A DNA stretch of 64,000 bases from Planctomycetaceae bacterium (GCA_013360495.1 JABWBM010000011.1:42-64041); one strand, 5' to 3'; positions 4,112 through 60,661 are shown, counted from the first letter of the stretch. Numbers and translations are program-made. The notes: generated from the letters alone by a model not told the origin.

Positions 4112-4197
4112 GACGTAGCGTCACGCCTATGGCGTGACGTCTTCGCCCCATTCTCAATATCGCTTACAAGACGTCACGGCATAGCCGTGACGCTACA
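4112..4197. repeat. MITE-like palindromic element, family C (TGTAGCGTCACG hairpin pair)
   Basis: gacgtagcgtcacgcctatggcgtgacgtcttc ... aagacgtcacggcatagccgtgacgctaca. The two hairpins lie in inverted orientation and the family recurs 8 times in the window. Confidence 0.8.
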
Positions 4198-4251
4198 AGA
4201 CTCCGTCCGCTTATCGTATGGTGTCACGCAACAAGGGATAGGTGACGCTGA

Positions 4252-5037
4252 ATGACTGAACTGCGGTTCACCAGTACGGACGGCCCGAAGCTCAAGAAGG
4301 CGCTCGCGCTCAAAGGCGTGACGCTTGCCGTTGATCTTCCGGAAGAACTAAGCGCCACACTTGGCATCAAGCGCGAGCACATTCTTGACCGCAACCAGTG
4401 GCGCGAATGGCTGCCGAAGTTCTCGAAGTCTAAGGCTCTCCTGATCTGGATCGGCGGCCGCCGCGATGATGACCAACAGTTTTTCGAGGCGCTGGCGGCA
4501 CACTTGCCCGTCGATGCGGCGCTCTGGAGTTTTCACGCTATGGGCGCGCTGATCACCGATCGCATGACGGGTGACGCGGTGCAGTTACTCCTGGTGAGCG
4601 CAGGTCTCCTTGACAAAGAATGTGTCAACATCGGTCACGGCTACTACGCGCGGCGATTTGTCCGGGCGCGGGGAAGTAAACCGCGTTCGACCGCCAAGGT
4701 TGAGCCGGAAACGGCCGCGCCGGATCCGAGCGCCGATGTCACCCGGCGCGACACGATCCGCATGCAGAAGGTGCGCGAAGCGCTGCAGTTCTCTCAAGCT
4801 TCCGCCACGGCATCATCCATGCAATCGGCCCTTGATGGCTTCGGCAAGCCGCGCAAGACGACGCGCGTGGTCAAGCCCGCGAAGGTCACGACCAAGCACA
4901 TCACCAAGCCAACGGCCAAACATCCCACCTCGAAAAAAACGGCTTCCGTGAAGAAAACTGCCTCTGTTTCAAAGAAGGCCGCCACTGCAAAGTCAAAGAA
5001 GTTCGGTCGCGCAACATCGGCCAGGCGCAAACGATAA
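4252..5037 (+). CDS. hypothetical protein with lysine/alanine-rich histone H1-like C-terminal tail
   Basis: The last ~60 aa read KPAKVTTKHITKPTAKHPTSKKTASVKKTASVSKKAATAKSKK. The N-terminal domain is unrecognised. Confidence 0.5.
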   Translation: MTELRFTSTDGPKLKKALALKGVTLAVDLPEELSATLGIKREHILDRNQWREWLPKFSKSKALLIWIGGRRDDDQQFFEALAAHLPVDAALWSFHAMGALITDRMTGDAVQLLLVSAGLLDKECVNIGHGYYARRFVRARGSKPRSTAKVEPETAAPDPSADVTRRDTIRMQKVREALQFSQASATASSMQSALDGFGKPRKTTRVVKPAKVTTKHITKPTAKHPTSKKTASVKKTASVSKKAATAKSKKFGRATSARRKR

Positions 5038-5088
5038 CGGGCCGCGTTGTCGCGGCCCGTTATTCGAGTTGAGCAGTGCTTTTTGTCG

Positions 5089-6996
5089 CTATTTCACGGT
5101 ATCGCCTGGTGTTCCGCCGATAGTCTTCAACAGATGCCACGCCTGTCTTTTCGCAATCGCTTCAGGTGAATCTCCCATGCCGATATTTCCGGTGCCTCCA
5201 ATGTTCATTTCGACGTGAATCGCTCGTTTGCTTCTCGGGAGCACGATCATGGCATAGGGTTCTCCCTTATCCAGCTCTTCATTAGGGTCGTTCCCCGACT
5301 GCCACGTCTTGATTGGGTCGAGACGCACGACCGTGGACGAATCGTTTTCAACCACCTCCTCTAGATTGAATCCGTAATAGTGCATGGATTCAAAGAGACC
5401 GTAGACAACGATCACATCGTGGGTGTCGAAGTTGAGACCACCCTTGATGAATTTGTCGCCATAAGGGTCGATGTTGTCCTCCTTGAGCGCCTCGCCCCAG
5501 TCGGTGTCGAACTGGCGCTTGACCTGATCTGTTCTGTCGCCTACGGTTTGCACGCGTTCATCGACGGAGTAATAACGAATAAGGTTTTTGACGACATTTC
5601 CGGATTGGTCTTTCACTTGTCCGTCGTAAGCGGCCCCTCCGTCGAGGAGTGAGGTATAAGCGGCGGTCTCCGGAAGATAATGCTCAACCTGAATGATATT
5701 TTCCTTGAACCATTTGGGGTTGCGTGCCACGCCGATGGAGAGGGTTCCAAGATATTTCCAGGAATCGAGAATGCCTTCTTTGGTGAGATCGATTCGTGAC
5801 TTTCCCGGAACTGCCATCGTGCGAAGCTGATATTCCACCCTCACCTTGCCCGGCTGCGGCGCATCGGCGGCAGGCACCACGAAGCATCCATAGAGGGTCC
5901 GTGACATGGCATCGTCAAATGGTCCTCGTTTCTTTGCGTCACCGGCGGTGACCGGGTCACGCCACAGAATCGTTTCGCCCTTGGACGTCACGGGCTTGCA
6001 GCGCAGGACGCAGGCTATATCGTCGGAAGTACGGACCTCACGATAGATCGCCTCGAGCTCGATGCCCGCGCCGGTGTCATCGCCGGCATCCGTCGGCTCC
6101 ATGTATTCTACGCGGTCGATGACCGCGATGACGGCATACTTGGTGAAGTCAATGTTTGGCGTTCCCAAGTCGGCTCTTTTTGAACGCTGCTTTTCAATCT
6201 CCCAGAGTTTGTCCCAAAAGGCCTCCCAAGCGTTCGCGTCAACAATGAGTTGTGCGGACGGAGCGAAAGTCTCCGTCATCGTCGTTCCCGACTGCTTGTC
6301 GAATACGTTTTCGATCACCTCGAACGATTCCGCCCAGGTCTTCGCGGCAACCCCATCGGACGGAACTTCACCCGCCACGCCGTCCTGCGCCGTATAAGTG
6401 ACGCCGTTGCATACGAACGACCCCGACAGCGCGATCAATGCCACGCTGCCTGTATTGATCCATCGCTTTGTATTGCCGAGCATTGTTCTTTCCTCCTGTG
6501 TCAGTGTTGTATCGAACCATTCTGCGGCCGCTTCGAGCGCCGCCCTGTCCGGAACGCCACCGGCTCTCGCCAACACCTTCCCGCGCACGGATTCGACGTG
6601 GCCATTGTCTGTCCGCAGCAAGGGAGAGGCGCTATCAATCAAAAGCCAGCCTTCCAAAAGCTTGATCTCATTGTTCTCGATCTCATACCGGGCTTCGAAC
6701 GAGACGGGTTTCTGATGACGCTCCGGCCCGAGAACGATCAACATAAGACCGATCACCACGCTCGCTGCCGCCGTGGCGATGCCGATCCAGCGGGGACGGG
6801 GGTGCGCGATAATCTTTCCCTTACCCCGCTCCTCTCCGTGAGAGGGAGAAAGGGATCGCGCCGTGACCGCAGCAACGATGCGACCGCTCAAATCCGGAGG
6901 CGATTCTTTGCCGTGGAAGTCGCGCAGCGCGAAGTCCAGCAGTGTATCGGTGTAGTGGTCGCGGTCTGTCATTGTTCCAGCCTCGCTTCGATGCAC
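5089..6996 (-). CDS. putative membrane-spanning anti-sigma factor with large extracytoplasmic domain
   Basis: Short cytoplasmic N-terminus and a single TM (WIGIATAAASVVIGLMLIVLG). It overlaps the upstream ECF sigma gene by 28 bp. GC content is lower than neighbouring genes. Confidence 0.45.
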   Translation of the reverse strand: MHRSEAGTMTDRDHYTDTLLDFALRDFHGKESPPDLSGRIVAAVTARSLSPSHGEERGKGKIIAHPRPRWIGIATAAASVVIGLMLIVLGPERHQKPVSFEARYEIENNEIKLLEGWLLIDSASPLLRTDNGHVESVRGKVLARAGGVPDRAALEAAAEWFDTTLTQEERTMLGNTKRWINTGSVALIALSGSFVCNGVTYTAQDGVAGEVPSDGVAAKTWAESFEVIENVFDKQSGTTMTETFAPSAQLIVDANAWEAFWDKLWEIEKQRSKRADLGTPNIDFTKYAVIAVIDRVEYMEPTDAGDDTGAGIELEAIYREVRTSDDIACVLRCKPVTSKGETILWRDPVTAGDAKKRGPFDDAMSRTLYGCFVVPAADAPQPGKVRVEYQLRTMAVPGKSRIDLTKEGILDSWKYLGTLSIGVARNPKWFKENIIQVEHYLPETAAYTSLLDGGAAYDGQVKDQSGNVVKNLIRYYSVDERVQTVGDRTDQVKRQFDTDWGEALKEDNIDPYGDKFIKGGLNFDTHDVIVVYGLFESMHYYGFNLEEVVENDSSTVVRLDPIKTWQSGNDPNEELDKGEPYAMIVLPRSKRAIHVEMNIGGTGNIGMGDSPEAIAKRQAWHLLKTIGGTPGDTVK

Positions 6997-7493
6997 TCGC
7001 GCAGTTTCTTGCGTAGCCGCGCGAAGTGGGTCTTAACGCTGTCCTCGGTCATATCGAGGGAACGGGCGACCTCTGCAAGTGACCGTTCATCGTTGTATTT
7101 GAGCCGCACTGCGTTCCTGTCGCGTGGTTCGAGCGTGTCGAGGCAGTGCTCAAGCGCGCCAAGATATTCGGTTCGTGCTGCTGCCTCGTAATAACGCGCC
7201 CAGACGTCATCGGCGATCTCGACGGCAGCTTCGTCGAGCGTGGTTCCCCGATTCTCGCGGCGCAGGCGATTGAGCCATGCGAAGCGAGCGGCTTTGCGCA
7301 GGTAGGCAGCGGTTTCCGGTTCGCTGCGCTGGACGAAGCCGCCTTCGATGACACTCACGAAGGCTTCTTGCGTCAGGTCGTCTGCCATTGCCGGTTCACA
7401 ACCCAAATAGCGCAGATAGCGCCAGACGCCGTGCTGGTGGTCGCGGATCAGGTGTTCGAGCGTTTCGTTGTTCACGGTGCTGACCATCATCAT
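6969..7493 (-). CDS. RNA polymerase ECF-type sigma-70 factor
   Basis: Region 2 (DDLTQEAFVSVIEG, ARFAWLNRLRRE) and region 4 HTH (SLAEVARSLDMTEDSVKTHFARLRKKLRE). Confidence 0.8.
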   Translation of the reverse strand: MMMVSTVNNETLEHLIRDHQHGVWRYLRYLGCEPAMADDLTQEAFVSVIEGGFVQRSEPETAAYLRKAARFAWLNRLRRENRGTTLDEAAVEIADDVWARYYEAAARTEYLGALEHCLDTLEPRDRNAVRLKYNDERSLAEVARSLDMTEDSVKTHFARLRKKLRECIEARLEQ

Positions 7494-7565
7494 CGCTTGA
7501 AAGCGCAGGAATCGCCAAGGTAAGCAGGAAAAATGAGAAAAATGTGGGGAAGAGCCACGTCGCGC

Positions 7566-7643
7566 GTCATGCCGACGAAAGTCGGCATCCAGCTACAATC
7601 AGATTTCTCGTCGCATCTGGATCCCCGCTTTCGCGGGGATGAC
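7566..7643. repeat. MITE-like element family A (forward hairpin, 24-nt spacer, reverse hairpin)
   Basis: gtcatgccgacgaaagtcggcatccag ... ctggatccccgctttcgcggggatgac. Confidence 0.85.
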
Positions 7644-7662
7644 GCCGCAGCAAGCTGCGGCG

Positions 7663-9039
7663 TCACTTACCGATGCAAAACTTGGCGAAGATGTGGTCGA
7701 GGACATCCGCCGAGGCTCCGTGGCCAAAGGCTTCGCGTATGGCGGAGAGCGCCGATCGGGCGAGGTCACTGACCACTTCGATGGGGGCGCCGCGATCCAA
7801 TTCCGAAACGGCTTCCTCCAGACGTGAGGCTGCCTCGGTAATCAGGGCTCCTTGGCGGGCGGATACAGCAGTAGTCTCCGGCGCGAGGGAGCGTTTGACG
7901 AGGGAAGTGATTCGGGACTTGAGCTCGGCGATGCCGTCGTTGGTGAGCGCGCTGACGGAGAGGGACGGATAGTCGCAGAATGGCTCTGGTAGGGGACTGG
8001 AGTTTGCGCACAGGTCGCGCTTGGTACGCACGATCAACGTACGATCATTTGTAAGATATGAGGCATTCCGGTGAAGGGGAGAATCAAAATGTAAGCAATC
8101 AAAGACTGGATTCCCGCCTTCGCGGGAATGACATGCCTTACTATCGATCACGAGTAACACAACATCGGCGCGATCCTGTTGTTCGTGGGTGGATTCAAGG
8201 GCGTGATTCTCGATCATATCGGCCGCCTGCTTCATGCCGGCGGTGTCCACGAGTTCCACGGCAATGCCGCCAAGATCGGCGGTTTCCAGCACGGCGTCGC
8301 GCGTGGTTCCGGCCTCATCGCTCACGATGGCACGCTCGCGCCCAAGGAGCGCATTGAAGAGCGTTGACTTTCCCGCGTTGGCCGGGCCGATGAGAACGAC
8401 CGACGGTTTCGCGTGGCCGGCGTGGCGCGGCGCTTCCGTGAACCGCCGCAGATGGTCAAGGGCCGCGCGCGCCATGTCCTTGAATCGGTCAAGCAATGCC
8501 TGTTCCGCCGCCTCCTCGTCAAAGTCAAAGCTCAGCTCGAACTGCGCGCACAGTGACTCAAGTTCGCTGACCAAGCGCTGGCCTTCTCGGGAGAGCGCCC
8601 CGTCCAGTACCGCGGAAAACCTGCGGGCATCTTCCTTGCCGCTGCTCGACACCAGTGCCATCACCGCTTCGGCTTGCGAGAGGTCGAGCACTCCGTTGAG
8701 ATAAGCGCGTTTACTGAACTCGCCCGGATCGGCCATGCGCGCACCGGCCTTGCACAGCTCACGCAGCACGGCGTCCACCAGCAATGGCGAGCCCGACAGG
8801 TGAATCTCCACGCAGTCTTCGCCGGTGGCGGAGTGCGGCGCTGGGGATATCCAGAGTTGTGCAGGACAAGCGCCTGCGGAAAGTTTGAGCCGTGTGCGAA
8901 CGATAGAACGCTTGGATTCAATAGATGCATCGGGGCAGAGCTTTCGCACGATCCCGATTGCCTCGTCGCCGCTCACGCGAATGGCCGCGCGGACTGCGGG
9001 AACAAGCGGCGTGGCTGGCGCGAAGATGGTTTCGGTCAC
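7663..9039 (-). CDS. mnmE: tRNA modification GTPase MnmE
   Basis: G1 motif GPANAGKSTLFNAL, G2/G3 DEAGTTRD..DTAG, and the C-terminal CIGK tetrapeptide. The gene overlaps yidC by 4 bp as in the classical arrangement. It carries an in-frame repeat insertion (next feature). Confidence 0.9.
   Translation of the reverse strand: MTETIFAPATPLVPAVRAAIRVSGDEAIGIVRKLCPDASIESKRSIVRTRLKLSAGACPAQLWISPAPHSATGEDCVEIHLSGSPLLVDAVLRELCKAGARMADPGEFSKRAYLNGVLDLSQAEAVMALVSSSGKEDARRFSAVLDGALSREGQRLVSELESLCAQFELSFDFDEEAAEQALLDRFKDMARAALDHLRRFTEAPRHAGHAKPSVVLIGPANAGKSTLFNALLGRERAIVSDEAGTTRDAVLETADLGGIAVELVDTAGMKQAADMIENHALESTHEQQDRADVVLLVIDSKACHSREGGNPVFDCLHFDSPLHRNASYLTNDRTLIVRTKRDLCANSSPLPEPFCDYPSLSVSALTNDGIAELKSRITSLVKRSLAPETTAVSARQGALITEAASRLEEAVSELDRGAPIEVVSDLARSALSAIREAFGHGASADVLDHIFAKFCIGK
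8062..8132. repeat. MITE family A copy embedded in-frame inside mnmE
   Basis: ggcattccggtgaaggggagaatc (degenerate unit) plus a 20-nt spacer plus ctggattcccgccttcgcgggaatgac. It is translated as CHSREGGNPVFDCLHFDSPLHRNASYLTND between the G3 and G4 (TKRD) motifs. Confidence 0.8.
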
Positions 9040-11138
9040 ATGGCGGTTCCCGGCATGGCGGACGCGCCGCGCGGGTCATCGATCAGCCCCTTGGCGTAGA
9101 GGTAACGGCGCACCAGCGTCGACTCAATCCACGAGAACATGATGCTGGCCACGAAGTAGAGCACGAAACCCGCCGGGAGCGCGTAGAAGAAGAGGATCAT
9201 CAAGGGGTTCATGATCCAGGTCATCATCACCTGCATCTGGCGCTGTTGGGGGTCGGTGGCCTTCGGCGTGCGGCTCTGCATGATGAACATCATCGCACCC
9301 CAGATCAGCGGGAGAATGTTGAGCGTGACATAGCCATGGAAGCTGATGCCGATGAAGGTGCTCTCGATCGCGCCGTAGATGGCGTCGGGGCGCGAGAGGT
9401 CGTTGATCCACAGGAACGATTCGTGATGCAAGAGGAATGAGTGGCGCAGCGAATTGTAGAGCGCGATGAAGATCGGGAATTGCAGGAGCAGCGGGAGGCA
9501 GCCGCCAAGCGGAAAGAAGCTCGCGCCCGCGGCTTTCATCGCGGCGCGGGTTTCCTGGAACATTAACATTTGCGCTTCGCGGCTCTTATCGTTCTTGTAC
9601 TTCTCCTTGATCTCGTCGATCTTGGGCTTGATCTTCTTCATTCTCGCGCCGTGAATCTGCATGGACATCTGGCCCTTGACCGAGAGCGGCGACATGCACA
9701 GACGCACGATGATGGTGAGCAGGATGATGGCGATGCCGACGCTGTTGGTGGTGTCTTTCAGCCAGCGCAGCAGCCACGTGATCGGCCCGGAAATCACCAG
9801 CGGCCAGCCGGTGGGGACGAGCTCGGTCCATGAAATCTTCTCGTCGTGTCCGGCAGGCCAGCCGGCGGCGAGCGCGGGTTCGATGTATTTCTCGCTGTTC
9901 GGGCCGACGTAGAGGGCGGCGCGGCGTTTCAGCGGCTCAGCGCCGGGGGCGATCTGGGTCTCGGGGAAGTTGAACGTGACACAGGTGTAGAATTCCTCGA
10001 GGGCTGCCTTCCGGGCGATGCGGTCCGGGCGCTCGACGACGTCCGCGCCCGCGCGCCCTTCAAACTCCGGAAGATAATCCATGCCGATGGCGGCGATGAA
10101 GTAACCGTTGGTCAGGCCGGCGAGGAGCAGCTCCCTTTCGGGATCTGGTTCAAACAGCTTGTGGAAGGGGACGGACGTCGTCCGGCCAGCCTTGCCCTGT
10201 TCGCGCAGTTCTTCGTCGATTTCGGCCATGGCGCCAGCGGCGTCGACGAACATGCGATGGTCGCCGGAGTAGGAGAGTCCTCCGCCGGATTGATAGAGGG
10301 CGACGATGCCAGTGTTGGTGTTCTCGAGCATGGATTCGCGGAACTCTTTGAAATTTTCGGCAATGCCGACCGGGCCATAGAGGAAGAGCTGCGGCGACGC
10401 TTGCTCCGCTCCGGAGTTGCGTACTTCGAGTTCGCAGACAACCTTGTGCGCGCCATAGATGAGGAAACGTTTGGCGATGCTGACGCCACGCGAGTCGGCT
10501 GGGGAGGTGAAGGTCAGCTCGGTATGGTCGCTATGGACGACGGGGCCGCTCGTCTCCCAGCGGACGGCGTTTCGCCATGCTTCGCTTCCGGCGAAGCCGA
10601 AGGTTGATGGTAGCGAATCGTCCCAATAGCCCGCGAACTCCGCGCTCGCCGGGTCGTACAGCTCGGGTTTGCGATCGGCGAACTCTTCTTTGAGGTGCTG
10701 GTGGCTCAGGAGTTGAAGCGGGTGATTAGGCGACTCCATCGGGTGGAGTGGCGTGCGCGCGAAGGTGATCTTCCCGTCCTTGTCGACGAAGCGCAGGATG
10801 GAGAGCACGGCGCCGCGGTCGCAGAAGACGGCGGTGTAGGACTCGTTCGCGACGGTGATGAAACGCGAGTCTTTGTAGGAAATGGTTGACGCATCCGCCG
10901 GAGGCGCCGGCGCAGGCTGTGTCTCTGTGATGGATGGGGGAGTGAGGTTTTCGAGTACCGGTGGAGTTTCGGACTTCGAGGCTGGAGGATTTTCGTTTGT
11001 GACAGGGGGCTGCGGCTTGTCAGCAGGCTTTTCGATCAACGATTCAAAATAGGAAAGGGAAGCGAAGAGCGCGCCCACGAGCAGAGCCGTCACCACCAGC
11101 GTGATCTTGGCGTACGAGCGTTTGATGTCCTGTGCCAT
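9036..11138 (-). CDS. yidC: membrane protein insertase YidC, extended to 700 aa
   Basis: Conserved C-terminal core (IILLTIIVRL...GGCLPLLLQFPIFIALYNSL...PAGFVLYFVASIMFSWIE). N-terminal TM plus a long periplasmic region. Confidence 0.9.
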   Translation of the reverse strand: MAQDIKRSYAKITLVVTALLVGALFASLSYFESLIEKPADKPQPPVTNENPPASKSETPPVLENLTPPSITETQPAPAPPADASTISYKDSRFITVANESYTAVFCDRGAVLSILRFVDKDGKITFARTPLHPMESPNHPLQLLSHQHLKEEFADRKPELYDPASAEFAGYWDDSLPSTFGFAGSEAWRNAVRWETSGPVVHSDHTELTFTSPADSRGVSIAKRFLIYGAHKVVCELEVRNSGAEQASPQLFLYGPVGIAENFKEFRESMLENTNTGIVALYQSGGGLSYSGDHRMFVDAAGAMAEIDEELREQGKAGRTTSVPFHKLFEPDPERELLLAGLTNGYFIAAIGMDYLPEFEGRAGADVVERPDRIARKAALEEFYTCVTFNFPETQIAPGAEPLKRRAALYVGPNSEKYIEPALAAGWPAGHDEKISWTELVPTGWPLVISGPITWLLRWLKDTTNSVGIAIILLTIIVRLCMSPLSVKGQMSMQIHGARMKKIKPKIDEIKEKYKNDKSREAQMLMFQETRAAMKAAGASFFPLGGCLPLLLQFPIFIALYNSLRHSFLLHHESFLWINDLSRPDAIYGAIESTFIGISFHGYVTLNILPLIWGAMMFIMQSRTPKATDPQQRQMQVMMTWIMNPLMILFFYALPAGFVLYFVASIMFSWIESTLVRRYLYAKGLIDDPRGASAMPGTAM

Positions 11139-11318
11139 GGGGCCTTTGCGGTAGAGACGTCACCAAAAGACAGGGCTGTATAGGCCAGCGCGTAGCCAAA
11201 ATCAAGCGTGGCGTGGGCGGTTTGTTTTTCCCGAAACCCGGCTATACTTTTCATGTGGCAGCGCCGTCACGCCGGGGCGCGGGGCTTCACGATCCATGAC
11301 GGGCAATGAGGCAGAAAG

Positions 11319-11531
11319 ATGAAGATTACCTGGACCGATACGGAGGAGATCGCGCTGCAATTGCTCGAGCGCTACCCCGACGTCGACCCGCTCAAGGTGC
11401 GCTTCACGGACTTGTACCTTTGGGTAACGCAACTCGACGGGTTCACGGGCGACACGACGCCCGGAGCGTCGAAAGAGAAAATCCTCGAAGCCATTCAGAT
11501 GGCTTGGTACGAGGAAAAGAACGATCATTAA
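11319..11531 (+). CDS. iscX: Fe-S cluster assembly protein IscX
   Basis: 70 aa. ITWTDTEEIALQLLERYPDVDPLKVRFTDLYLWV matches the IscX/YfhJ signature ([33 protein letters not shown]). Confidence 0.7.
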   Translation: MKITWTDTEEIALQLLERYPDVDPLKVRFTDLYLWVTQLDGFTGDTTPGASKEKILEAIQMAWYEEKNDH

Positions 11532-11554
11532 AACACGCCGCCGCCGGACGGTAA

Positions 11555-11977
11555 TTATTGCCCGGCGCCCTTCGAAAGATATGCGCGATAACGTTGGGAC
11601 GCTGTCGCGTTGAGGTTGAAGCGAACGTCAACATTATCTTTCACGGGATCGAGCAAGAGCTTGCGTGTTCCCGTAGGTTCGATCAACTCCCGCACAAGCC
11701 CTTGGGTAAGCTCGCTGGCGCTCTTGTTGTTTTGTAAGGAAGCCGCTTGAATACCCTGAACAACGGCGTCGGCGCCACGGAGCTGACTGGAAAGCACTGT
11801 GCTTTCCGCTTTGTTCTTTGAGGGAATCGTCTCGCGCATTTCACGAAGCTGGGCGGAAATCTCGATCGAACTGGTGGCAGCGTTTATGGCATTGACAGGC
11901 ATGGTGTTCCTCCGTGTTCGCAGTCCTGTGCCATCCGATGGCGGCGCAATTGTAATGTTTGAACACAGGGGAGACAA
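11555..11977 (-). CDS. hypothetical protein
   Basis: ORF only. The start is uncertain, possibly the internal MPVNAI. No recognisable motif. Confidence 0.3.
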   Translation of the reverse strand: MSPLCSNITIAPPSDGTGLRTRRNTMPVNAINAATSSIEISAQLREMRETIPSKNKAESTVLSSQLRGADAVVQGIQAASLQNNKSASELTQGLVRELIEPTGTRKLLLDPVKDNVDVRFNLNATASQRYRAYLSKGAGQ

Positions 11978-14541: not shown

Positions 14542-14543
14542 GA

Positions 14544-52374: not shown

Positions 52375-53319
52375 CTATCGCCGTCCCGCCACAGCTGCCG
52401 GTTCGACCACAGTGCGCCAGCCCCACTTGTCGGCGATGCGGCCCTGCACGACGTCGAGATATTTCTTCTGCAGCTTCGCCGTGACCGGCCCGCGCTTGCC
52501 TGAGCCGATCTTGATCTTGTCAAGCGAGCGGATTGGGGTGACCTCCGCGGCTGTTCCGACGCCGAAGATTTCGTCCGCGATATACAGGAACTCGCGCGGC
52601 ATAGCGGTCTCGCGCACCTCGATCCCCTCCTCGCGGGCGAGGGTGATAATCGAATCGCGCGTGATGCCGCCGAGGATGGAATTACCGATGGGCGGCGTGT
52701 GGATCACGCCGTCGCGGATGACGAAGAGGTTTTCGCCCGAACCTTCGGCGACGAGGCCGTTGACGTCGAGCGCGATGCCTTCCGAGTAGCCGTTGGCGAT
52801 GGCGTCCATTTTGATCAATGCGCCGCTGGCGTAGTTGGCCGAGCACTTGGCGAAGGCGGGCGTGGTGTTCGGCGCGTTGCGTGTCCAGCTTGAGATGGCC
52901 ATATCGACGCCCTGCTCGAGCGCCTCGGGCCCGAGGTATTTGCCCCACTTCCAGACCATGATGAACATGCTGACCGGGTTCTTGGCCGGGTAAACGCCCA
53001 TGGGGCCCGCGTTACGGAAGACCACGGGGCGGATATAGCATTCGTCGAATTCGTTGACACGAATGGTCTCGATCATCGCCTCGCGCGTTTCATCGATGCT
53101 GAAGGGAATGTCCATGCGATAGATCTTGGCGGAGTCATGCAGACGGCGGTTATGCTCGTCGAGGCGGAAGACGTTGGCCTTGCCATCGACGTTGTATGCG
53201 CGGATGCCTTCGAACACGCCCGAGCCGTAGTGAATCACGTGGGCGCTGACATGAATCGTCGCGTCGTCCCAATCCACGAACTGCCCGTCGAACCAAACCT
53301 TCTCGCACAACTTGTCCAT
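52375..53319 (-). CDS. ilvE: branched-chain amino acid aminotransferase
   Basis: Class IV aminotransferase motifs (FDGQFVDWDDATIHV, EGSGENLF, PxTRD). Confidence 0.85.
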   Translation of the reverse strand: MDKLCEKVWFDGQFVDWDDATIHVSAHVIHYGSGVFEGIRAYNVDGKANVFRLDEHNRRLHDSAKIYRMDIPFSIDETREAMIETIRVNEFDECYIRPVVFRNAGPMGVYPAKNPVSMFIMVWKWGKYLGPEALEQGVDMAISSWTRNAPNTTPAFAKCSANYASGALIKMDAIANGYSEGIALDVNGLVAEGSGENLFVIRDGVIHTPPIGNSILGGITRDSIITLAREEGIEVRETAMPREFLYIADEIFGVGTAAEVTPIRSLDKIKIGSGKRGPVTAKLQKKYLDVVQGRIADKWGWRTVVEPAAVAGRR

Positions 53320-53450
53320 CGTTCCTCCATGCATTCAAGCGGCCATTGACCGCGGTAGTGAGCGCCAAAGCCTCATTGTAGCGGCGCCTCGCGGCAGGCG
53401 CAAATAAAGCCCGGGAATTCACCACGTCACGCGTAAACACAGGTTTCTTA

Positions 53451-53479
53451 TGTAGCGTCACGCGCCCTCGCGTGACGGG
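53451..53479. repeat. MITE family C single hairpin
   Basis: tgtagcgtcacgcgccctcgcgtgacggg. Confidence 0.7.
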
Positions 53480-53547
53480 CCTACCATTGGTAGTGCAAAG
53501 ACGCCCTTTATCCCGATCGGTCGAAAAATCTTCCTCTTGCCGCAGAG

Positions 53548-54438
53548 ATGCCGATCGCTAGGCTATCAACCGCAATGCTCACCCGTGAACCGCTGCTGCA
53601 TTCCGCCACCGTCACGCGCCAGATCGACTACGGCCACGGCTACTACGTTCTCGAGTTTGACTGCCCCGACCTCGCTGCCTCCATCGGCGTAGGGCAGTTC
53701 GTCAATCTGCGCGTGAGGAACGACTACTCGCCGCTCCTGCGCCGCCCCTTCAGTGTGTTCGATGTGCTCATTGATCGCGCCAACAATCCATCGGGCATCA
53801 GCCTGCTCTACCACATCGTCGGCGCCGGCACAGGCCTGATGGCGAAGATGAAGGAAGGCGAAAAGGTCTCGCTCAACGGTCCGCTCGGCAAGCCCTTCCC
53901 CTGGCCAACCGACGACAAAGCCGCCATCTACATGGTGGGCGGCGGTATCGGCACCGCGCCTTTTTTACTGCAAGCGAAGCGCTGGATGAAGGAAGCGCCC
54001 GGCAGAGAGTACGTCTTCATCGCGGGCGGGCGCAGCGACCACGACTTGAAATATATGACGCACTTCTCGCCACTCACGAAGCAGGGCCTCAACCTCATGC
54101 TCACCACCGAGGATGGCTCGGTGGGCTTCCGTGGGCGCGTGACCGACCCACTGCGTGGCGAATTGCAAGCGCGCGCGAAGAAGAAGCTCACGTCCGCGGT
54201 TTATTGCTGCGGGCCGACGCCGATGATGGCCGCGGTCTCGGCGCTCTGCGAGGAATTCGACGTGACCTGCATGGCCAGCCTCGAATCCGTGATGGCGTGC
54301 GGCTACGGCGTGTGCAACGGCTGCGTGTGCGCGATCGACGACGCGACGAAGGAGAAGGGCTGGCGCTACGCCAAGACCTGCATCGAAGGCACCTGCTTCG
54401 ACGCGCGCAAGATCCAATGGAAGAAGATCAGCGTGTAG
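53548..54438 (+). CDS. PyrK-like FAD/NAD(P)-binding oxidoreductase with C-terminal [2Fe-2S] cysteine cluster
   Basis: RRPFSVFDV (FAD), GGGIGTAPF (NAD) and CGYGVCNGCVC. No pyrD nearby. Confidence 0.65.
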   Translation: MPIARLSTAMLTREPLLHSATVTRQIDYGHGYYVLEFDCPDLAASIGVGQFVNLRVRNDYSPLLRRPFSVFDVLIDRANNPSGISLLYHIVGAGTGLMAKMKEGEKVSLNGPLGKPFPWPTDDKAAIYMVGGGIGTAPFLLQAKRWMKEAPGREYVFIAGGRSDHDLKYMTHFSPLTKQGLNLMLTTEDGSVGFRGRVTDPLRGELQARAKKKLTSAVYCCGPTPMMAAVSALCEEFDVTCMASLESVMACGYGVCNGCVCAIDDATKEKGWRYAKTCIEGTCFDARKIQWKKISV

Positions 54439-54473
54439 AGCTTATCCTCGAAAAAAGATGCGTTTTTGCGTGC

Positions 54474-54553
54474 GTCATGCCGACGAAAGTCGGCATCCAG
54501 GACCCATGAAAAGACAAAAAGTTAAGATGGATTCCGGCTTTCGCCGGAATGAC
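54474..54553. repeat. MITE-like element family A (paired hairpins)
   Basis: gtcatgccgacgaaagtcggcatccag ... atggattccggctttcgccggaatgac. Confidence 0.85.
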
Positions 54554-54597
54554 GTTATAAACGCCAACCATTCATGGGGGCAGTAAGAGCCCTCGTA

Positions 54598-57500
54598 TCA
54601 CTCCGGGATCAGCACCAGCGCGCGGCGCTCGGCATCGGCTGCTGTCTTGACGTGGGTGCGGAAGCTCGCGTAATTCTCGACGTCGATACGCGCCGCCATG
54701 GTGCGTAGCGAGCGTTTGACGGTCAAAGTCCCGCCGTCGAGCGAATACGTTAAGGAATAGAGGAAGGGGTGCGCCGGGATCGCCACATCCTCGGGCATAC
54801 GCTCGAGGCGGTAGCCCTCTGGCAGCTCATAGCGCAGGGTTTCCTCGAAGACGATGCTGTCGGAAATCACGAGGTCGAAGGCCCGGTGTTCCTCGCTGAT
54901 GTAGCGTCCGAAAACGTCGCCCGTGTTTGTCAGGTGTGGCGTGAAGCGCAGGCCATCGCCTTCGGTCTTTTGCGCCGCGGACGCCATGGAAGCGTCGAAA
55001 GTTCTCAGGAAGGGTACGCCAAGCTCTTCGACCTTGACCAACTCGAATGCTCCGATCGAAATGCCCGGCATGAATGAGCCGACCGTCTGCTCGAGCGCGC
55101 GTTTGTTGTCGTTCGGCGTTGCCGTGCGGGCTTGTTCGCGATCGTCGTATCCATAGGCGCCGAAGTCCGTGACGTTTCCGGTCACCGTTGCCGAACCGTC
55201 AGCGGCGAGTTTCAGAGTTAAGGCTACGCCGCGCCGATCGCGGCTCTCGTCGCCCCCCGGGAGGCGAAGGAATGTCCACGCGCCGCTCGCGGGATCGATG
55301 GCCATGGCGGGCGCTTCGAACATGGCGCTCTCCAGTTCACCGAAAGGGGCGAGACGATAGGTCATGTCGATGAATACCTGTTCGCCCTCGTCTTCTATGA
55401 GGAGAAGGCGACTGCGAAGCATATCTGCGTAGTCGAGATAGCGCGGTTTGCGCGTCTCGATATCGGGGTCGTTGCCCGCAAACACATGCTTGTACTCCAC
55501 TCCTGCCGCATCCAGCATCGCGGCCATCAGCGCGAAGCGGTCGCCGGACTTTTGTTCGACGGTGGTGTGCGGATTGGTGCCGCCGCCGGTGGTTCGAATC
55601 GTTGAATTTACCCAGGCGTAGAGGGCGACGGCCTTTTGGATGTCGCCGGCGTCGCGGTCGAGCACGGACAACGCTTGCATGGCAGCCTCGCGCACACGCC
55701 ACGTTACCTCCGTGGCGCGCAGGGAGGAGCGCAGACGCCGCGCCGCACCTGTCCACGGATTTTCGCCCGGACGGTAAAAAGTCACCTTCGGCATGGTTTC
55801 GTCGCGTGTTGGCATGGCGGGTTCGGCCTTGCGGCTTCTCGGGCGGCGCATCTCCCAACTCAAGAGGACGCGGCCATCGTCGAGCTCGCGGCGAGTGAAC
55901 GTAGCGCCCTCCATATTTTCTTCGCGGTAGTGAACGACGAAGTCCTTGGGCGTGACGACCACGAGGCGCGCGAGCGCGGTGGGGGTGCGAACGTCGCGAT
56001 CCTCGAACTGGAACGAGACATCGTCGAGCACGCCCGGAGTGCTCGCGCGAGTGTACCGGCGGTAGGCCGTGTCGATCACTGCGCCCGGCTCGACGCCCGG
56101 GAACTCGAAGTTCGCGCCGGTCACCGTCACCGGTTCAAGCTCGGCGCCATCGCCCTTGATCGTGCGCGCGCGCAGCACTTCGCCGTCGATGCGCTGCCGC
56201 CCGTGGGTGTCGACGGCGTCTTGCAGCAAAATCTTCGTCACAGTCTGCCCATAGGCGACGAAGCTGCCGTCCTTCTCCACGTGCCAGACTTCTTCATCAA
56301 GCAGCCATCCGGCGGAAGCGAGCGGATAGTCTTGCGCTTTCAGCCAGTCGCGCGCCTGTAAGGGATCGAGGGCCGTCGAAAACTCGCTCAACATCTGCGG
56401 TGCTTTGCCGTCAAGCCGCGCGAGGTAGCGCCGGGCGTTGTCGTGGCCGGGGTTGCGCTCGACGGTTTTGAGCAGCGCTTCGCGCGCTTCTTTCTCCAAG
56501 CCATTGCGGTATGCGAGCATGGCCGCGTCGTAATAGCGGTTGGCCCTGCCGCGCTCCGGGCGCTCAGCAAGCGCCATGAGAATGGCGAAGGCTTCGGCAA
56601 TCTTCCCCGACGCCGCGAGAATCGCTGCCCGTTCGCGTTGCGTAGTGGTCGTAGCGCCACCGAGGATTCGTTCCTTGGCCTCTATATATTCGAGGGCCGT
56701 GTCGAAGTCGCCGCCGTTGAGCGCGAGACGTTTGAGTGCGTCGAGAATGTTGGTGTTATTCTTCGCCGGGCCGTCTGCCAGTTGCTCATAGAGCTCCTGC
56801 GCCAGTTCAAGATCGCCGTCCGCTTCCGCCATTTCCGCGCGCATAAGCACCAATTGCGCAGGCCGCGACGAGGTCTCGGTGAAAGCTAGCATACGCTGAT
56901 TGCGCGCCTCGGCCTGCCACTTACGCCGGTCGAAGAAAGCAGCGTAATGGGTCCGGTGAGCCCAGTGCGGCTGGATCGCCAGCGTTTCATCGTAGAGTTT
57001 GCGGGCGTCGCCATCGCGGTCTTCGCCCACGCGGATATTGGCGAGCTTCAAGCGCGACACCACTGCGCCGGGTTGGTTCGCGTTGAGCCACGTGTAACGC
57101 TCGGCGAGGATGCGGCGCTGCTCGGCAGCCGTGGCGACGCTTGTCCGCTCGTAATACATGGCGTCGAGGCAGGCTTCCATTAAAGGATGAGACTTGCGGT
57201 AGCCCTCCGCTTCGTGCCAGAGATCTTCGGCTTGTTCCGGGCTTTGCGCTCCAAGCAATTCCAACGCGAGTAAACAGCGGGCTTGCATTTGTACCTTCGG
57301 GTCTTTGGCGCTATCGATGAGTGACGCCAGCCGTTGGTAGCGATAGGGGATGGGCTGCGACGCGGGCGGGACAGAACCGCGTGGCGCGAAGGGCTTCATG
57401 TCCGTCGGATATTGCGAACGGACGGATTCGAGAGAGAGGCGAGTCTTCGGGTCGCAGATGCGGACGGTGGCGGCGCTCAGCGATCCGAGCTTGACCAGCA

Positions 57501-58281
57501 GCGTGCTCGTGCCTTTGGGTATCTGAACGAGCGCCGAGTCGTCGCGGGAATAATCGGCCTCGGGCCTGCGGTTGAAAACCATATTGCCGTTGAGCCAAAC
57601 CTTCACGCCGCCATCGTTGACCTCGATGTCCAGCAGCGCTTCGAATGCGTCGCCATCGTTTACTACTTGTGTTAAGAGGAACCAGCCTGTGCCGTCGTGT
57701 TCGAACACGTCTTGTGGGTTGACGGTGGAACGCGAGGGGAGTTCGGGCGTCCACTTTGTCCAGCTTACCGGGCCGAAGGCGCCGCTCATGGTTTGCTTCG
57801 TGTCCACCCACAGTTCGGGCTGGAGCACGTCGTAATGCCTGTCCCCGTCGTTGGCGCCGAACGGCCCGGCGACAAGCCATTGCTGCAGGCCAAGGGTGGC
57901 GTTCTCGATGCGCCGCGCAGTGTCGAGGTCGTCGTCGACGAGAGCAGCCTCGTGCATCACCCCGAGAAAAGCGCGGGCGCTGAGGCCGAGCACGCCGAGG
58001 CGCTTGGCGTTGCCGGAGATGGCGAGTAGCGTTTTGCCCAGCGCGTCGGGGTTATCGGTATAGAAAAGAGTATGACCGAAATGATTGATATAGGTAAGCG
58101 TGGCAATGTCGTCGGGGGAATTCTGCACGGCGTCGAACATGCGCGCGGCGATCACGTTGTAATCGTTCTTCACCCACGGCTCGAAGTCAAAACACTGGTC
58201 GAGGATTTTCGTGTTGACGGCGGTTTGTGCGTGGAGCAGGCCAGAGAAGGCGAAGAGCATGACAAGTATCAATCGGGTCAT
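54598..58281 (-). CDS. large secreted protein (1227 aa) with TPR-like repeats (hypothetical)
   Basis: Signal peptide MTRLILVMLFAFSGLLHAQTA and helical repeat blocks in the middle third. Confidence 0.45.
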   Translation of the reverse strand: MTRLILVMLFAFSGLLHAQTAVNTKILDQCFDFEPWVKNDYNVIAARMFDAVQNSPDDIATLTYINHFGHTLFYTDNPDALGKTLLAISGNAKRLGVLGLSARAFLGVMHEAALVDDDLDTARRIENATLGLQQWLVAGPFGANDGDRHYDVLQPELWVDTKQTMSGAFGPVSWTKWTPELPSRSTVNPQDVFEHDGTGWFLLTQVVNDGDAFEALLDIEVNDGGVKVWLNGNMVFNRRPEADYSRDDSALVQIPKGTSTLLVKLGSLSAATVRICDPKTRLSLESVRSQYPTDMKPFAPRGSVPPASQPIPYRYQRLASLIDSAKDPKVQMQARCLLALELLGAQSPEQAEDLWHEAEGYRKSHPLMEACLDAMYYERTSVATAAEQRRILAERYTWLNANQPGAVVSRLKLANIRVGEDRDGDARKLYDETLAIQPHWAHRTHYAAFFDRRKWQAEARNQRMLAFTETSSRPAQLVLMRAEMAEADGDLELAQELYEQLADGPAKNNTNILDALKRLALNGGDFDTALEYIEAKERILGGATTTTQRERAAILAASGKIAEAFAILMALAERPERGRANRYYDAAMLAYRNGLEKEAREALLKTVERNPGHDNARRYLARLDGKAPQMLSEFSTALDPLQARDWLKAQDYPLASAGWLLDEEVWHVEKDGSFVAYGQTVTKILLQDAVDTHGRQRIDGEVLRARTIKGDGAELEPVTVTGANFEFPGVEPGAVIDTAYRRYTRASTPGVLDDVSFQFEDRDVRTPTALARLVVVTPKDFVVHYREENMEGATFTRRELDDGRVLLSWEMRRPRSRKAEPAMPTRDETMPKVTFYRPGENPWTGAARRLRSSLRATEVTWRVREAAMQALSVLDRDAGDIQKAVALYAWVNSTIRTTGGGTNPHTTVEQKSGDRFALMAAMLDAAGVEYKHVFAGNDPDIETRKPRYLDYADMLRSRLLLIEDEGEQVFIDMTYRLAPFGELESAMFEAPAMAIDPASGAWTFLRLPGGDESRDRRGVALTLKLAADGSATVTGNVTDFGAYGYDDREQARTATPNDNKRALEQTVGSFMPGISIGAFELVKVEELGVPFLRTFDASMASAAQKTEGDGLRFTPHLTNTGDVFGRYISEEHRAFDLVISDSIVFEETLRYELPEGYRLERMPEDVAIPAHPFLYSLTYSLDGGTLTVKRSLRTMAARIDVENYASFRTHVKTAADAERRALVLIPE

Positions 58282-58331
58282 ATGATCTTCCTTCAGATAG
58301 GTCTGTTATTCGGGAAGAATACAACCACGCC

Positions 58332-58410
58332 GTCATTCCGGCGAAAGCCGGAATCCAGTCTTATGGACATTTTTTGGTCGCTTCTGGATACCGGCTTTCG
58401 CCGGTATGAC
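58332..58410. repeat. MITE-like element family A (paired hairpins)
   Basis: gtcattccggcgaaagccggaatccag ... ctggataccggctttcgccggtatgac. Confidence 0.85.
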
Positions 58411-58494
58411 GCCCTGTGGCGCGTGGGGTTCTTGGGAATGCAATACAACATAGGCCTTCGATCTTACGTTTGTCCGACCTTTGGCAAGCGGAAA

Positions 58495-59199
58495 TCAGGC
58501 GCTCAAGCGCAGGAAATTGCGGAGCAGGTCGTGGCCGTGCTCGGTCAGGATCGCCTCGGGGTGGAACTGCACGCCCCAGATCGGGAGCTCGCGGTGTTCG
58601 ATCGCCATCACCACACCGTCGTCGCTTCGTGCAGTGACGCGCAATGATGGCGGCAGCGTGTCCTCCTTCACCGCAAGCGAATGATAGCGGCACACGCGCA
58701 GTGGATTCGGTAGCCCGGCGAGGAGGCCGCTGCCATTGTGGGTGACGAGTGATGTCTTGCCGTGCACAGGTTCGGGAGCGTGGGTGACGCTTGCGCCGAA
58801 GTGTTGCGCGATTGCCTGATGGCCTAAACATACCCCAAGGATCGGCACGTGGCCCGCGAACGCCTTGATCACGTCGAGCGTCTTTCCGGCGCACTCCGGC
58901 GTCCCCGGCCCGGGAGAGATGCAGACGCGTTTTGGTTGCAATTGTTCAGGAAACCGTAGTCTCGAGTAGGTCGTCCTGAGCTTGTCGAAGGGCGGCCGTA
59001 TCGAGAGACGGTCCTTCTCGTGTCCCGTATCTCGATACGCGCCTCCGGCGCTACTCGATATGACGGATTTTGAATGTGGCTCATCCAAAAGATCTACAAC
59101 AAATGCGTCATTGCGCAGCACGGTCACGTCCTCGCCCAGCTCGTGGAAATACTGCACGAGGTTAAACGTGAACGAATCGTAGTTATCGATCAAGAGCAT
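58495..59199 (-). CDS. glutamine amidotransferase (anthranilate/aminodeoxychorismate synthase component II)
   Basis: [18 protein letters not shown]...ISPGPGTPE...[13 protein letters not shown]...HSL...FHPE catalytic triad. It contains a 46-aa in-frame insertion (next feature). Confidence 0.8.
58942..59079. repeat. 138-bp palindromic element inserted in-frame in the amidotransferase gene
   Basis: ccgtatcgagagacgg / cccgtatctcgatacg and ctcgagtagg / ctactcgata inverted pairs. Translated as [46 protein letters not shown] at a position where homologues have ~8 aa. Confidence 0.7.
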
Positions 59200-59264
59200 G
59201 GGGGAATTATGCTGATCTACTGGGCGATACGCCACGTTGTAAAGCCCCATATGATGGATAAAAT

Positions 59265-60035
59265 ATGGCAATGCTCCTGACCATAACGCCCAGCATGCTG
59301 ATCTCGGCGCTGGTCATCTTCATCGCTCTCGCATTCTTCATCATGGAGCGCGTTCGTCCGGGGCGTGGTTTACCCAATTCTCGCGGTTGGTATGTGCGCG
59401 CCCTCTTCCTCAATCTCGCCCAATACGGTGTCGTGACACTGGCCGGGGTAACATGGGAAGACTGGCTCCACGGTTCTTCATGGCTCGATATCGCCTCCGT
59501 CATGCCATCGCCAGTTCAGGGAGTGTTGGCATGGTTCATCGGCACGTTTATTTTCTATTGGTGGCATCGCATACGTCACGATTCTGATTTTCTGTGGCGG
59601 AGTTTACACCAGATTCATCACAGCGCATCACGCATAGAAGCCTTGACGGCGTTCTACAAACATCCAGCGGAGATGATCGTCAACTCGGTGATCATCAGCC
59701 TGGTCTTGTTTACGATGCTGGGCGCTGACCTCGAGGCGGCTGCATGGTTCAATCTCTTCGCTGTTTCAGGGGAATTTTTCTACCACAGCAATATCAAGAC
59801 TCCTCACTGGGTGGGTTATTTCATGCAGCGTCCGGAGCACCATTCGATTCATCATCAGTACGATGTCCACAAATTCAATTTTGGCGACATTACGTTGTGG
59901 GACAGGCTCTTTGGGACATTCAAGGATACACGAGAATTCGCGCCGCGATGCGGTTTTGACGAGGGCAAGGAAGAACAGATTGGGAAGATGCTCGTATGGG
60001 TGGACGTCAATCGAGCACAGGCTGCAAGAAGCTGA
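59265..60035 (+). CDS. fatty acid hydroxylase / sterol desaturase-family membrane protein
   Basis: Histidine boxes [17 protein letters not shown] and HHSIHHQ. Confidence 0.75.
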
Positions 60036-60220
60036 TAAGGCGTCTTCAATCCCCCCGAATGACGTAAATCATTGCCTAGAACCCCTTAAGCGCACAATCA
60101 CGCCACAAATTTTTCCTAAAAAGTTCAAGTCGCACCTGCGCTTTTCCCGATAAACATAGCAGAGGTGTTCTACCGAAGTCTTGGGTAACGGCAACGCACG
60201 GCGAGAGCCTCAAACGTGCG

Positions 60221-60496
60221 ATGTCGTCGAACTCGGAGGATTCTCCTCTCCCCGCCCTGAGGCTCAGGGCCCGAAGCCACGGATGGCGACGGCAGAAGAT
60301 GAAAGGATTCATCATGCGGACCGGTCGTGCCGCACGTCGGGACCGGATCCTGATGTCGCTCCCGGAGTCACGGCAGCAGAGAGTTCTGAGTCTCAAGTCA
60401 TTGATCGACTCGGAACACTATGCGCCTGACATTGATGGGAAGCTTGAACTGGTGGTCGACGATCTGATCGACGAAGCCATCAAACTTCGAGCCTAG
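60221..60496 (+). CDS. small protein with FlgM-like C-terminus (possible anti-sigma-28 factor)
   Basis: RVLSLKSLIDSEHYAPDIDGKLELVVDDLIDEAI compared with the FlgM C-terminal consensus RVAALKAAIAAGTYKVDAEKIADKLL. Weak. Confidence 0.3.
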   Translation: MSSNSEDSPLPALRLRARSHGWRRQKMKGFIMRTGRAARRDRILMSLPESRQQRVLSLKSLIDSEHYAPDIDGKLELVVDDLIDEAIKLRA

Positions 60497-60588
60497 ACAT
60501 TCAGTATTCGGTCTGGCACACCCAGACGAGGCAACACGCGGGGTAACTCGCGTGTTGCCACTTTAGGCGAACGTCAGGTTGATTTTCA

Positions 60589-60661
60589 TGTAGCGTCACG
60601 CGCACCCGCGTGACGGACTAGTTCAAAGACAAGACGCCATGCGAGGGCGCATAGCGCTACA
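60589..60661. repeat. MITE-like element family C
   Basis: tgtagcgtcacgcgcacccgcgtgacgg ... aagacgccatgcgagggcgcatagcgctaca. Confidence 0.75.

Follow-up and report, generated by a model that had tools for sequence, protein, structure and literature searches.

Family C is a set of short palindromic elements dispersed through a 64,000-nt stretch of DNA from Planctomycetaceae bacterium (GCA_013360495.1, JABWBM010000011.1:42-64041; the whole stretch is referred to here as the window). We consider it likely that its members are GTAG-tagged repetitive extragenic palindromes (REPs) arranged in head-to-head dimers, which resemble REP doublets forming hairpins (REPINs) or bacterial interspersed mosaic elements (BIMEs), are non-autonomous, and are mobilised by a REP-associated tyrosine transposase (RAYT) encoded elsewhere. 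Membership in the GTAG REP class is well supported; participation in a working REPIN-RAYT system is what we infer, because the organism's own RAYT was not located and no empty sites were found. The right frame is that of REPs, REPINs and BIMEs and not that of miniature inverted-repeat transposable elements (MITEs). The family itself is previously undescribed, and its kind, head-to-head dimers of GTAG REPs, is already known.

Coordinates below refer to the whole window, and units are written 5' to 3' on the strand on which GTAG leads. Listing every GTAGCG and running a covariance model, built from 17 units, across the whole window with filters off yielded 15 intact units and one degenerate unit. 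Units are composed of GTAGCG, a stem of 7-9 bp, a loop of 3-6 nt, the complementary stem and CG(G), in most followed by TCTT; the stem after GTAGCG reads TCACGss or one of the variants CCACGC, CCATGC and CTATGCG. The two CG dinucleotides, one following GTAG and one preceding TCTT, pair with each other, which leaves only GTAG unpaired and gives a hairpin of 8-9 bp. GTAG, indeed GTAGCG, was invariant in all 16 units of the window and in all four units found outside it. Seven inverted pairs with GTAG outward accounted for 14 of the 16 units, and the remaining two were singlet remnants, such that seven of the nine loci in the window were head-to-head dimers with spacers of 10-60 nt. In total, 10 loci (20 units) were recorded in ~80 kb of this organism, all of them intergenic or touching only the last codons of open reading frames (ORFs).

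A preliminary description of this DNA had listed eight start positions and counted nine copies. A real element was present 0-5 nt from each of the eight starts, and the ninth copy probably corresponds to the degenerate unit at 52320-52351. Its outer termini, given as TGTAGCG/CGCTACA, proved correct except for the leading T, which was found in just 9 of 16 units, the fixed terminus being GTAGCG/CGCTAC. The inner AAGACG/CGTCTT pair was recovered as the CG plus TCTT that ends 11 of the 16 units, but not every arm carries it. Similarly, elements do have two hairpin-bearing arms as described, but with three stem subfamilies instead of a single TCACGcc type.

The pattern GTAGCGTCACG-N7-CGTGACG had 8 matches in the window versus 0.15 expected, and a hairpin-core pattern had 8 versus 0.06 expected. 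With the covariance model, full units numbered exactly 15, scoring 38-49 bits (E <= 1e-10); the matches that ranked below them (<=16.6 bits) were opposite-strand echoes of the same palindromes that covered model positions 7-27 only, and the degenerate unit scored 10.6 bits. The counts against chance and the covariance-model run indicate that the census of the window is complete and that the family is real. These same three results (8 versus 0.15, 8 versus 0.06 and 15 model matches) refute the idea that GC-rich palindromes arose by chance or from base composition, for which only the 59.5% G+C of the window would speak.

We found that 98.4% of 126 stem cells were standard pairs, with double-sided changes at three of the eight stem pairs (T-A to C-G, C-G to T-A and C-G to G-C; 11 cells). 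Neither the observed percentage of pairing nor the covariation score was reached in any of 500 shuffles, and shifting the partner by 1-3 columns reduced pairing to 10-53%. The stem is under structural constraint. An extra compensatory variant, A-T to C-G (CCCTGCG/CGCAGGG), was observed in a new copy outside the window (L047 3797).

Stem sequence divided the dimers into three subfamilies. In C1 (4115, 13807, 29433, 52228 and an outside copy, L015), both arms were of the TCACGsC type, and a GCC-TAT-GGC-type arm was paired with a GGC-TAT-GCC arm in five of five dimers. In C2 (24843, 60590 and the outside copy L047 3797-3866), a TCACGCG-CCCT-CGCGTGA arm with a CGG tail was joined to a CC(A/C/T)TGCG arm with a CGTCTT tail in three of three, and both remnants (52320-52351 and 53452-53482) were C2 left arms. 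C3 (39036) combined a CCACGC arm with a CCATGC arm. Arm pairing was therefore non-random, with heterodimers in 8 of 8 cases. Folded as single-stranded DNA (ssDNA), C1 and C3 dimers each gave a single long hairpin (energies of -30 to -36 kcal/mol and z-scores of -7 to -9); over the ssDNA folds as a whole, z ranged from -3.5 to -8.8. The loci in the window are listed below, with dimers given without strand.

4115-4196, C1 head-to-head dimer: arms 4115-4143 (plus strand, GCC-TAT-GGC type) and 4168-4196 (minus strand, GGC-TAT-GCC type), spacer 24 nt; flanked by TCTT at 4108-4111 and AAGAC at 4197-4201 (GTCTT on the minus strand); a single extended hairpin when folded (-31.1 kcal/mol, z -8.8); its tandem neighbours are a PBP gene (end 4049) and an ORF (start 4252).
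13807-13924, C1 dimer: arms 13807-13835 (plus) and 13896-13924 (minus); GTCTT at 13800-13804; the dimer lies 25 nt upstream of the start of a thioesterase gene.
24843-24923, C2 heterodimer: plus arm TCACGCG-CCCT-CGCGTGA with tail CGGTCTT, minus arm CCATGC...GCATGG, forming two separate hairpins; in the divergent region between an E1-dehydrogenase gene (probable start 24802) and ORF 25038.
29433-29500, C1 dimer: spacer 10 nt; AAGAC at 29501-29505 (GTCTT directly 5' of the minus-strand GTAG); intergenic, the divergent neighbours being a minus-strand gene with its start at 29334 and an epimerase gene on the plus strand at ~29548.
39036-39119, C3 dimer: stems CCACGC/GCGTGG (plus) and CCATGC/GCATGG (minus), CGTCTT tails on both arms; GTCTT 3 nt 5' of the minus-strand GTAG; long hairpin, z -7.2; between convergent ORFs, ORF 39103-39699 ending in the right-arm loop.
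52228-52309, C1 dimer: spacer 24 nt; GTCTT 2 nt 5' of the left GTAG; between an ilvE-like gene (stop 52375) and obg (start <=52200); Logan unitigs end at 52283, in the right arm.
52320-52351, minus strand, C2-type unit, degenerate and truncated: GTAGCGTCACGCGCCCCCGCG, lacking the 3' stem half that would follow; abuts the C1 dimer 52228-52309.
53452-53482, plus strand, C2-type singlet arm: GTAG preceded by TCTT at a distance of 2 nt; the flanking genes, ilvE and an oxidoreductase gene, are divergent.
53498-53505, partner-arm remnant: AAGACGCC, 8 nt, 15 nt past the singlet arm, where the partner arm would begin.
60590-60660, C2 heterodimer: 9 nt downstream of the ppdK stop (60670); minus arm 60657-60634, then CTTGTCTTTG, the sole family C unit in 50000-64000 that passed a scan for terminator-like sites.

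Both singlets look like decayed dimers. In particular, 53452-53505 can be read as such because the AAGACGCC remnant sits where the partner arm starts.

Arms were ~90% identical across unlinked loci, and identical 29-mers were found at unlinked loci. The C1 spacers (10, 24, 24, 27 and 60 nt) were at shuffle level (identity 0.354 versus 0.354); the spacer pairs 4115/52228 (0.62) and 52228/L015 (0.56) look higher in what is a post hoc comparison. Similar arms together with shuffle-level spacers point to dispersal of a common sequence and not to local evolution. The unit of homology is the ~29-nt arm, each "terminus" being an independent GTAG-tagged REP hairpin.

The same geometry might suggest classical MITEs, i.e., deletion derivatives of DDE insertion sequences (ISs) with terminal inverted repeats (TIRs) of ~29 bp, moved in trans and creating target-site duplications. 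An element of this type, bounded by TIRs, was implied by the preliminary description, and its outline is indeed seen in the inverted termini (25-31 nt, 83-93% complementary) and in the size (68-118 bp) and intergenic location of the elements. However, the aligned flanks contained no direct repeats around the pairs, and hence no target-site duplication; each supposed TIR is a self-complementary hairpin with compensatory stem changes; and the interiors, 10 to 60 nt long, are unrelated between copies. In addition, singlet arms occur, and the invariant unpaired GTAG is a REP hallmark. No IS with these ends was present in ~80 kb, and the motif had no multi-copy match in 185,579 species genomes. We regard a MITE origin as very improbable. 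Nor do the copies seem to be fragments of a single larger known IS, since the window has neither a transposase nor a RAYT.

The flanks pointed to a different feature. In 7 of 16 units, TCTT (mostly as GTCTT) ended 0-3 nt before GTAG, compared with 1.8% of random 7-mers and 2.5% of 236 other GTAG sites in the window (binomial P ~6e-9, a post hoc value). Because the motif was spotted post hoc in the window data, copies outside the window matter here, and a 5' TCTT was found on one arm of both later-found outside dimers, directly before GTAG at L047 3797 and as TCTTCC before GTAG in L015. The TCTT copies on the two sides of a pair were inverted, not direct. TCTT contains the CT dinucleotide cut (between C and T) by characterised RAYTs, and may be a CT cleavage or target site.

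Characterised RAYTs have been reported to bind the folded single-stranded hairpin, to require GTAG, and to cut between C and T 5' or 3' of the hairpin, with GTAG serving as a guide as in IS200/IS605 (PMC3333891, PMC8266576). By analogy with the E. coli, S. maltophilia and Marinomonas enzymes, family C dimers would be non-autonomous elements whose hairpins and GTAG are bound on ssDNA by a RAYT (HUH/Y1) encoded elsewhere. GTAG would act as the guide that selects the cleavage site between C and T, and the (G)TCTT 3' of most units, which is also present 0-3 nt 5' of GTAG in about half, would likely be where the enzyme cleaves or targets the DNA. The elements would then be copied or moved by cleavage and strand transfer. 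On this analogy, mobility and spread of family C are probably due to a domesticated tyrosine transposase.

It was possible to examine RAYT-like genes in the phylum by using the R. baltica RAYT rba11751 (Additional file 5 of PMC3733652) as a query against a protein collection. Homologues formed 863 clusters across Planctomycetia with ~60% identity and a star-like relationship. They matched the NCBIfam family NF047646, "REP-associated tyrosine transposase", below its cutoff (E 1e-7 to 1e-12), and most were named "hypothetical protein" and had no Pfam match on record. In all four loci inspected, which were from different lineages, the RAYT-like gene was bracketed by GTAG hairpins at the following positions.

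L025: 2915-2975 and 3567-3658.
L029: 2909-2984 and 3558-3627.
L041: 1448.
L044: 1425 and 2138.

Stems of the bracketing hairpins were lineage-specific (GTAGT-GGATCTT-gtta-AAGATCC, GTAGT-GGRNTTC-gcca-GAANYCC and GTAG-CTGAATTC-gcca-GAATTCAG), and in two of the four loci (L025 and L029) the RAYT-like stop codon was the TAG of GTAG. Because these genes were GTAG-bracketed in four of four loci, REPtron architecture is normal in this phylum. Ranking the homologues by GC-related amino-acid composition gave no discrimination, and no REP-encoded peptides were found in them. Four proteins (P0155, P0141, P0140 and P0160) were considered as the cognate RAYT and rejected, all being from other organisms.

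We also examined whether family C extends beyond the window. Adjoining sequence of 15.6 kb was available (9.9 kb on the right, 5.7 kb on the left). At L047 3797-3866, ~6 kb past the right edge, a further C2 dimer overlapped the stop codon of a Peripla_BP_2 gene, and no family C dimer was found in the 5.7 kb on the left. A full C1 dimer with the same arm pairing and a TCTTCC flank before GTAG was located at 476-560 of a 592-bp contig (L015, JAKLJY010000397.1) that had been deposited in the "Myxococcota bacterium MAG.78" bin, in the same study as GCA_023150505.1. This contig is probably a mis-binned piece of the planctomycete genome. GCA_026647195.1, GCA_023150505.1 and Logan unitigs of >20 runs contained DNA identical to the window, and the IlvE-like protein had a 100% identical counterpart in a "Planctomycetes bacterium" MAG. 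Logan k-mer unitigs stopped inside REP arms (52283; 13827-13830), as a genome-wide repeat causes k-mer assemblies to do. These breaks, together with the L047 and L015 copies, show that the family is present elsewhere in the genome; its absence there had been named in the preliminary description as grounds for dismissal.

Two further observations concern the public assemblies themselves. The first 112 nt of contig L033 (JAPKHD010000089.1, GCA_026647195.1) had no match in the window, and its other 9,647 nt were 100% identical to 7131-16777; positions 1-112 may reflect a chimera at the end of the contig or structural variation within a 1251-aa ORF. The public contig JAPKHD010000005.1 (97 kb) starts at ~34961 of the window and extends ~68 kb past its right edge, and the left half of the window is represented by other contigs of the same metagenome-assembled genome (MAG); the window therefore derives from an assembly more contiguous than any of those retrieved.

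In other organisms family C was nearly undetectable. GTAGCGTCACG-N7-CGTGACG had 15 single matches and no multi-copy match in 185,579 species genomes (the source genome evidently not among them), which is about the hand-estimated chance number for an 18-base pattern in 596 Gb. Three of the 15 were meaningful: L015, L013 and L007. Two JGI metagenome scans, one exact and one degenerate, gave no matches, and relatives with 75-78% IlvE identity showed no synteny and no GTAG hairpins in 38 kb. L013 (4495-4519) and L007 (2937-2961) represent an orthologous single copy, GTAGCGTCACGGCC(A/G)(T/C)GCCGTGACG, in the Planctomycetota MAGs FR_29 and Bin_90R, respectively. Its TAG is the stop codon of a gene for a 649-aa dynamin-like GTPase. 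Each of the two genomes had one exact match (on a 2.45-Mb contig in FR_29), and the FR_29 copy was identical to the 29433 arm over these 25 nt. This copy could be a relic, a seed or a domesticated family copy in other Planctomycetota. From these searches, family C appears to be lineage-restricted and essentially absent elsewhere.

Gene context was derived from Pfam assignments and from gene calls on identical public contigs. The neighbours of family C loci are ordinary housekeeping genes. These are in tandem at three loci (PBP/ORF, trmB/thioesterase and ilvE/obg); one locus separates convergent ORFs (39036), one follows ppdK by 9 nt, and three of the nine are in divergent promoter regions (24843, 29433 and 53452). 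Six of 10 loci were directly after a stop codon (trmB, the ilvE-like gene, ppdK, ORF 39103, the PBP gene and, in L047, Peripla_BP_2). The earlier characterization of the family as strictly intergenic is nearly right. Exceptions are the 13807 copy, for which the previously noted overlap with the trmB stop was confirmed (13921-13923 is the TAG of the right-hand GTAG), and ORF 39103-39699 (minus strand), which extends 14 nt into the 39119 arm and has its stop in the arm loop. Besides, an E1-dehydrogenase ORF (22756-24915, minus strand) was extended 113 nt upstream through the 24843-24923 dimer, its probable true start being the ATG at 24802. The ORF on the other side of this dimer (25038-25628, plus strand) had a weak match to an AbiEii nucleotidyltransferase toxin domain (type IV toxin-antitoxin; E 1.3e-5, 25.7 bits).

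These positions raise the possibility that family C consists of immobile hairpins that serve the host as bidirectional terminators, mRNA 3' stabilisers or nucleoid-protein sites, and that are kept by selection and homogenised by gene conversion. Consistent with this view are the 6 of 10 loci directly after a stop codon, the pyrimidine-rich TCTT at unit ends, the unit that passed the terminator scan, and the single orthologous GTAGCGTCACGGCCATGCCGTGACG hairpin exactly at the dynamin-like GTPase stop in two other Planctomycetota MAGs; in addition, such roles are credited to REPs in the literature (PMC3733652). However, no transcript ends in divergent promoter regions, and three loci are in such regions. 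There was no U-tract after the units, the tails consisting of CGTCTT and variable sequence, and in the scan of 50000-64000, which one family C unit passed, the overall yield of terminator-like sites equalled the shuffle expectation. Family C units are not canonical terminators. In Rfam 15, tRNA-Met was the only match in the window at the gathering threshold; at an E-value threshold, a dimer matched only generic microRNA-precursor hairpin models, far below the gathering score. A host role would also leave unexplained the invariant unpaired GTAG at the outer end of both arms, the 5' TCTT and the decayed copies (52320-52351 and 53452). Finally, relatives at 75-78% protein identity have no such hairpin in 38 kb, and this absence implies that the host does not need family C. 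We therefore consider a host-functional origin unlikely. Donation of TAG stops and formation of hairpins at mRNA 3' ends (trmB, ppdK) are likely secondary consequences and not the reason for the family.

Several observations weigh against our proposal that family C is a RAYT-mobilised REP system. No RAYT was detected in the window and the 15.6 kb adjoining it, either by a scan for HUH...YxxxNP motifs or by tblastn with eight published RAYT/TIRYT sequences, and none of the 120 rba11751 homologues listed could be recognised as the RAYT of this organism. No pair of filled and empty sites was found, all assemblies being 100% identical at the two loci compared. Related genomes had been proposed in the preliminary description as a means to date insertions; relatives at 75-78% IlvE identity share no synteny with the window. 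TCTT, a post hoc motif with a variable spacing of 0-3 nt, is a poor fit to a precise insertion site. C2 dimers have non-complementary arms and fold as ssDNA into two separate hairpins; spacers are unconserved, unlike those of classical Pseudomonas REPINs; and divergent promoter sites are less typical of REPs according to PMC3733652.

Two other palindromic families are present in this DNA. Family B fits the published design of CGTC-tagged REPs: CGTC, an 8-bp stem starting with AT (ATTCCGGC), a 4-nt loop, the complementary stem and a CCA tail. About half of its copies continue as CCAG-TCTT (...GGAATCCAGTCTT), the same TCTT with which family C ends, and one copy in L054 has GTCTT 5' of the tag. 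The occurrence of families B and C in the same DNA indicates that GTAG and CGTC REPs coexist in this planctomycete. Family A consists of long inverted repeats with arms of 25-50 nt placed 105-170 nt apart and rich in CACCACGGGG / GGGGAA; it has no sequence in common with family C, as stated before. Copies of both families are given below.

58331-58363, plus strand: family B, with an inverted partner at 58384-58416.
50974-51006, plus strand: family B.
35891-35923, minus strand: family B.
4078-4104: family B, TGTC variant.
63389-63408: family B.
L054 ~3590-3625 and 4815-4925: family B.
14541-14695: family A.
19351-19590: family A.
37531-37748 (and 37586-37689): family A.

The start of ORF 37505-39016 is probably over-extended, because the family A copy at 37531-37748 lies inside its 5' end. 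With regard to the TCTT seen in both REP families, one speculative scenario, to which we assign little probability, is that GTAG and CGTC REPs are mobilised by a single planctomycete RAYT, with (G)TCTT as their common site of cleavage or targeting. CGTC REPs are without a known transposase according to PMC3733652. If true, the shared RAYT would give these "orphan" REPs their mobilising enzyme and would offer a naturally occurring REP system in which the insertion site is defined.

Few non-coding repeats of bacteria are as abundant as REPs and REPINs, and mechanistic work on them comes nearly entirely from a few Proteobacteria. Family C contributes a clean case of high repeat density in an uncultured planctomycete (one dimer in every ~8 kb, perfect stems, invariant GTAGCG and three stem subfamilies related by compensatory changes), in a phylum with a widespread, conserved and poorly annotated family of RAYT-like genes, and its TCTT flank is a testable candidate for a cleavage or target site. 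There are also practical effects: these repeats break short-read unitigs, lengthen predicted ORFs and provide genes such as trmB with their stop codons. Family C, a real, well-defined and ordinary feature, leaves the present picture of REP biology unchanged.

Comparison with known systems places family C as follows. Like the subterminal hairpins of IS200/IS605 (see also PMC8266576), it has a 5' guide tetranucleotide and no target-site duplication, and shows a possible tetranucleotide target (TCTT) 5' and a possible cleavage site 3' of the hairpin. Unlike IS200/IS605, it has no transposase gene between the hairpins, and its arms are inverted copies and not distinct left and right ends. REPINs and RAYTs were reportedly described in Pseudomonas fluorescens by Bertels and Rainey in 2011. 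As in these REPINs, inverted REPs of family C fold as one long hairpin (C1 and C3), singlets resemble decayed dimers, and the dimer appears to be inherited as an oriented unit; the differences are the unconserved spacers and the non-complementary C2 arms. With E. coli REPs and BIMEs (PMC3333891, PMC8266576), family C shares the module of GTAG plus hairpin, pairs of REP and inverted REP with variable linkers, and a CT dinucleotide on both the 5' and the 3' side of the hairpin that could be cleaved. A mismatch or bulge in the stem is required in E. coli REPs, whereas family C stems are perfect and resemble the "second group" of perfect palindromes (PMC8266576); unlike E. coli BIMEs, family C forms no tandem arrays and has no cognate transposase identified here.

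The closest correspondence is with the GTAG REP superfamily of Di Nocera et al. 2013 (PMC3733652). In that account, unpaired GTAG is found in >90% of members; stems are mostly 6-9 bp with short loops, and complementary changes in the stem distinguish subfamilies; the commonest arrangement is the head-to-head dimer, GTAG facing outward, mostly a heterodimer with a spacer of 20-100 bp that may differ in sequence; TAG stop codons are donated; and members occur in Planctomycetes and Verrucomicrobia, families being reported for the PVC bacteria Rhodopirellula baltica (several) and Opitutus terrae. The sequence CG-TCACGss-TAT-ssCGTGA-CG did not appear in the text compared, and this comparison did not place family C among the 24 published families; a literature search for its exact sequence returned unrelated primer matches only. 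It also differs from the GTAG REPs described there in its conserved TCTT on both sides of the unit and in a stem that itself begins with CGTC. With a stem of 8-9 bp and a loop of 3-6 nt, family C lies within the limits of the superfamily (units of 20-40 bp, stems of 5-13 bp and loops of 2-20 nt); GTAG, conserved in >90% of superfamily members, is invariant in it, and seven of its nine loci in the window are head-to-head dimers, where the superfamily often forms head-to-head or tail-to-tail dimers 1-100 bp apart. Family C further shares with the superfamily the unpaired GTAG end, the G+C-rich stem of 6-9 bp with a short loop, subfamilies related by complementary changes, head-to-head and mostly heterodimeric pairs 10-100 bp apart, extragenic location, donation of TAG stops and lineage-specific sequence.

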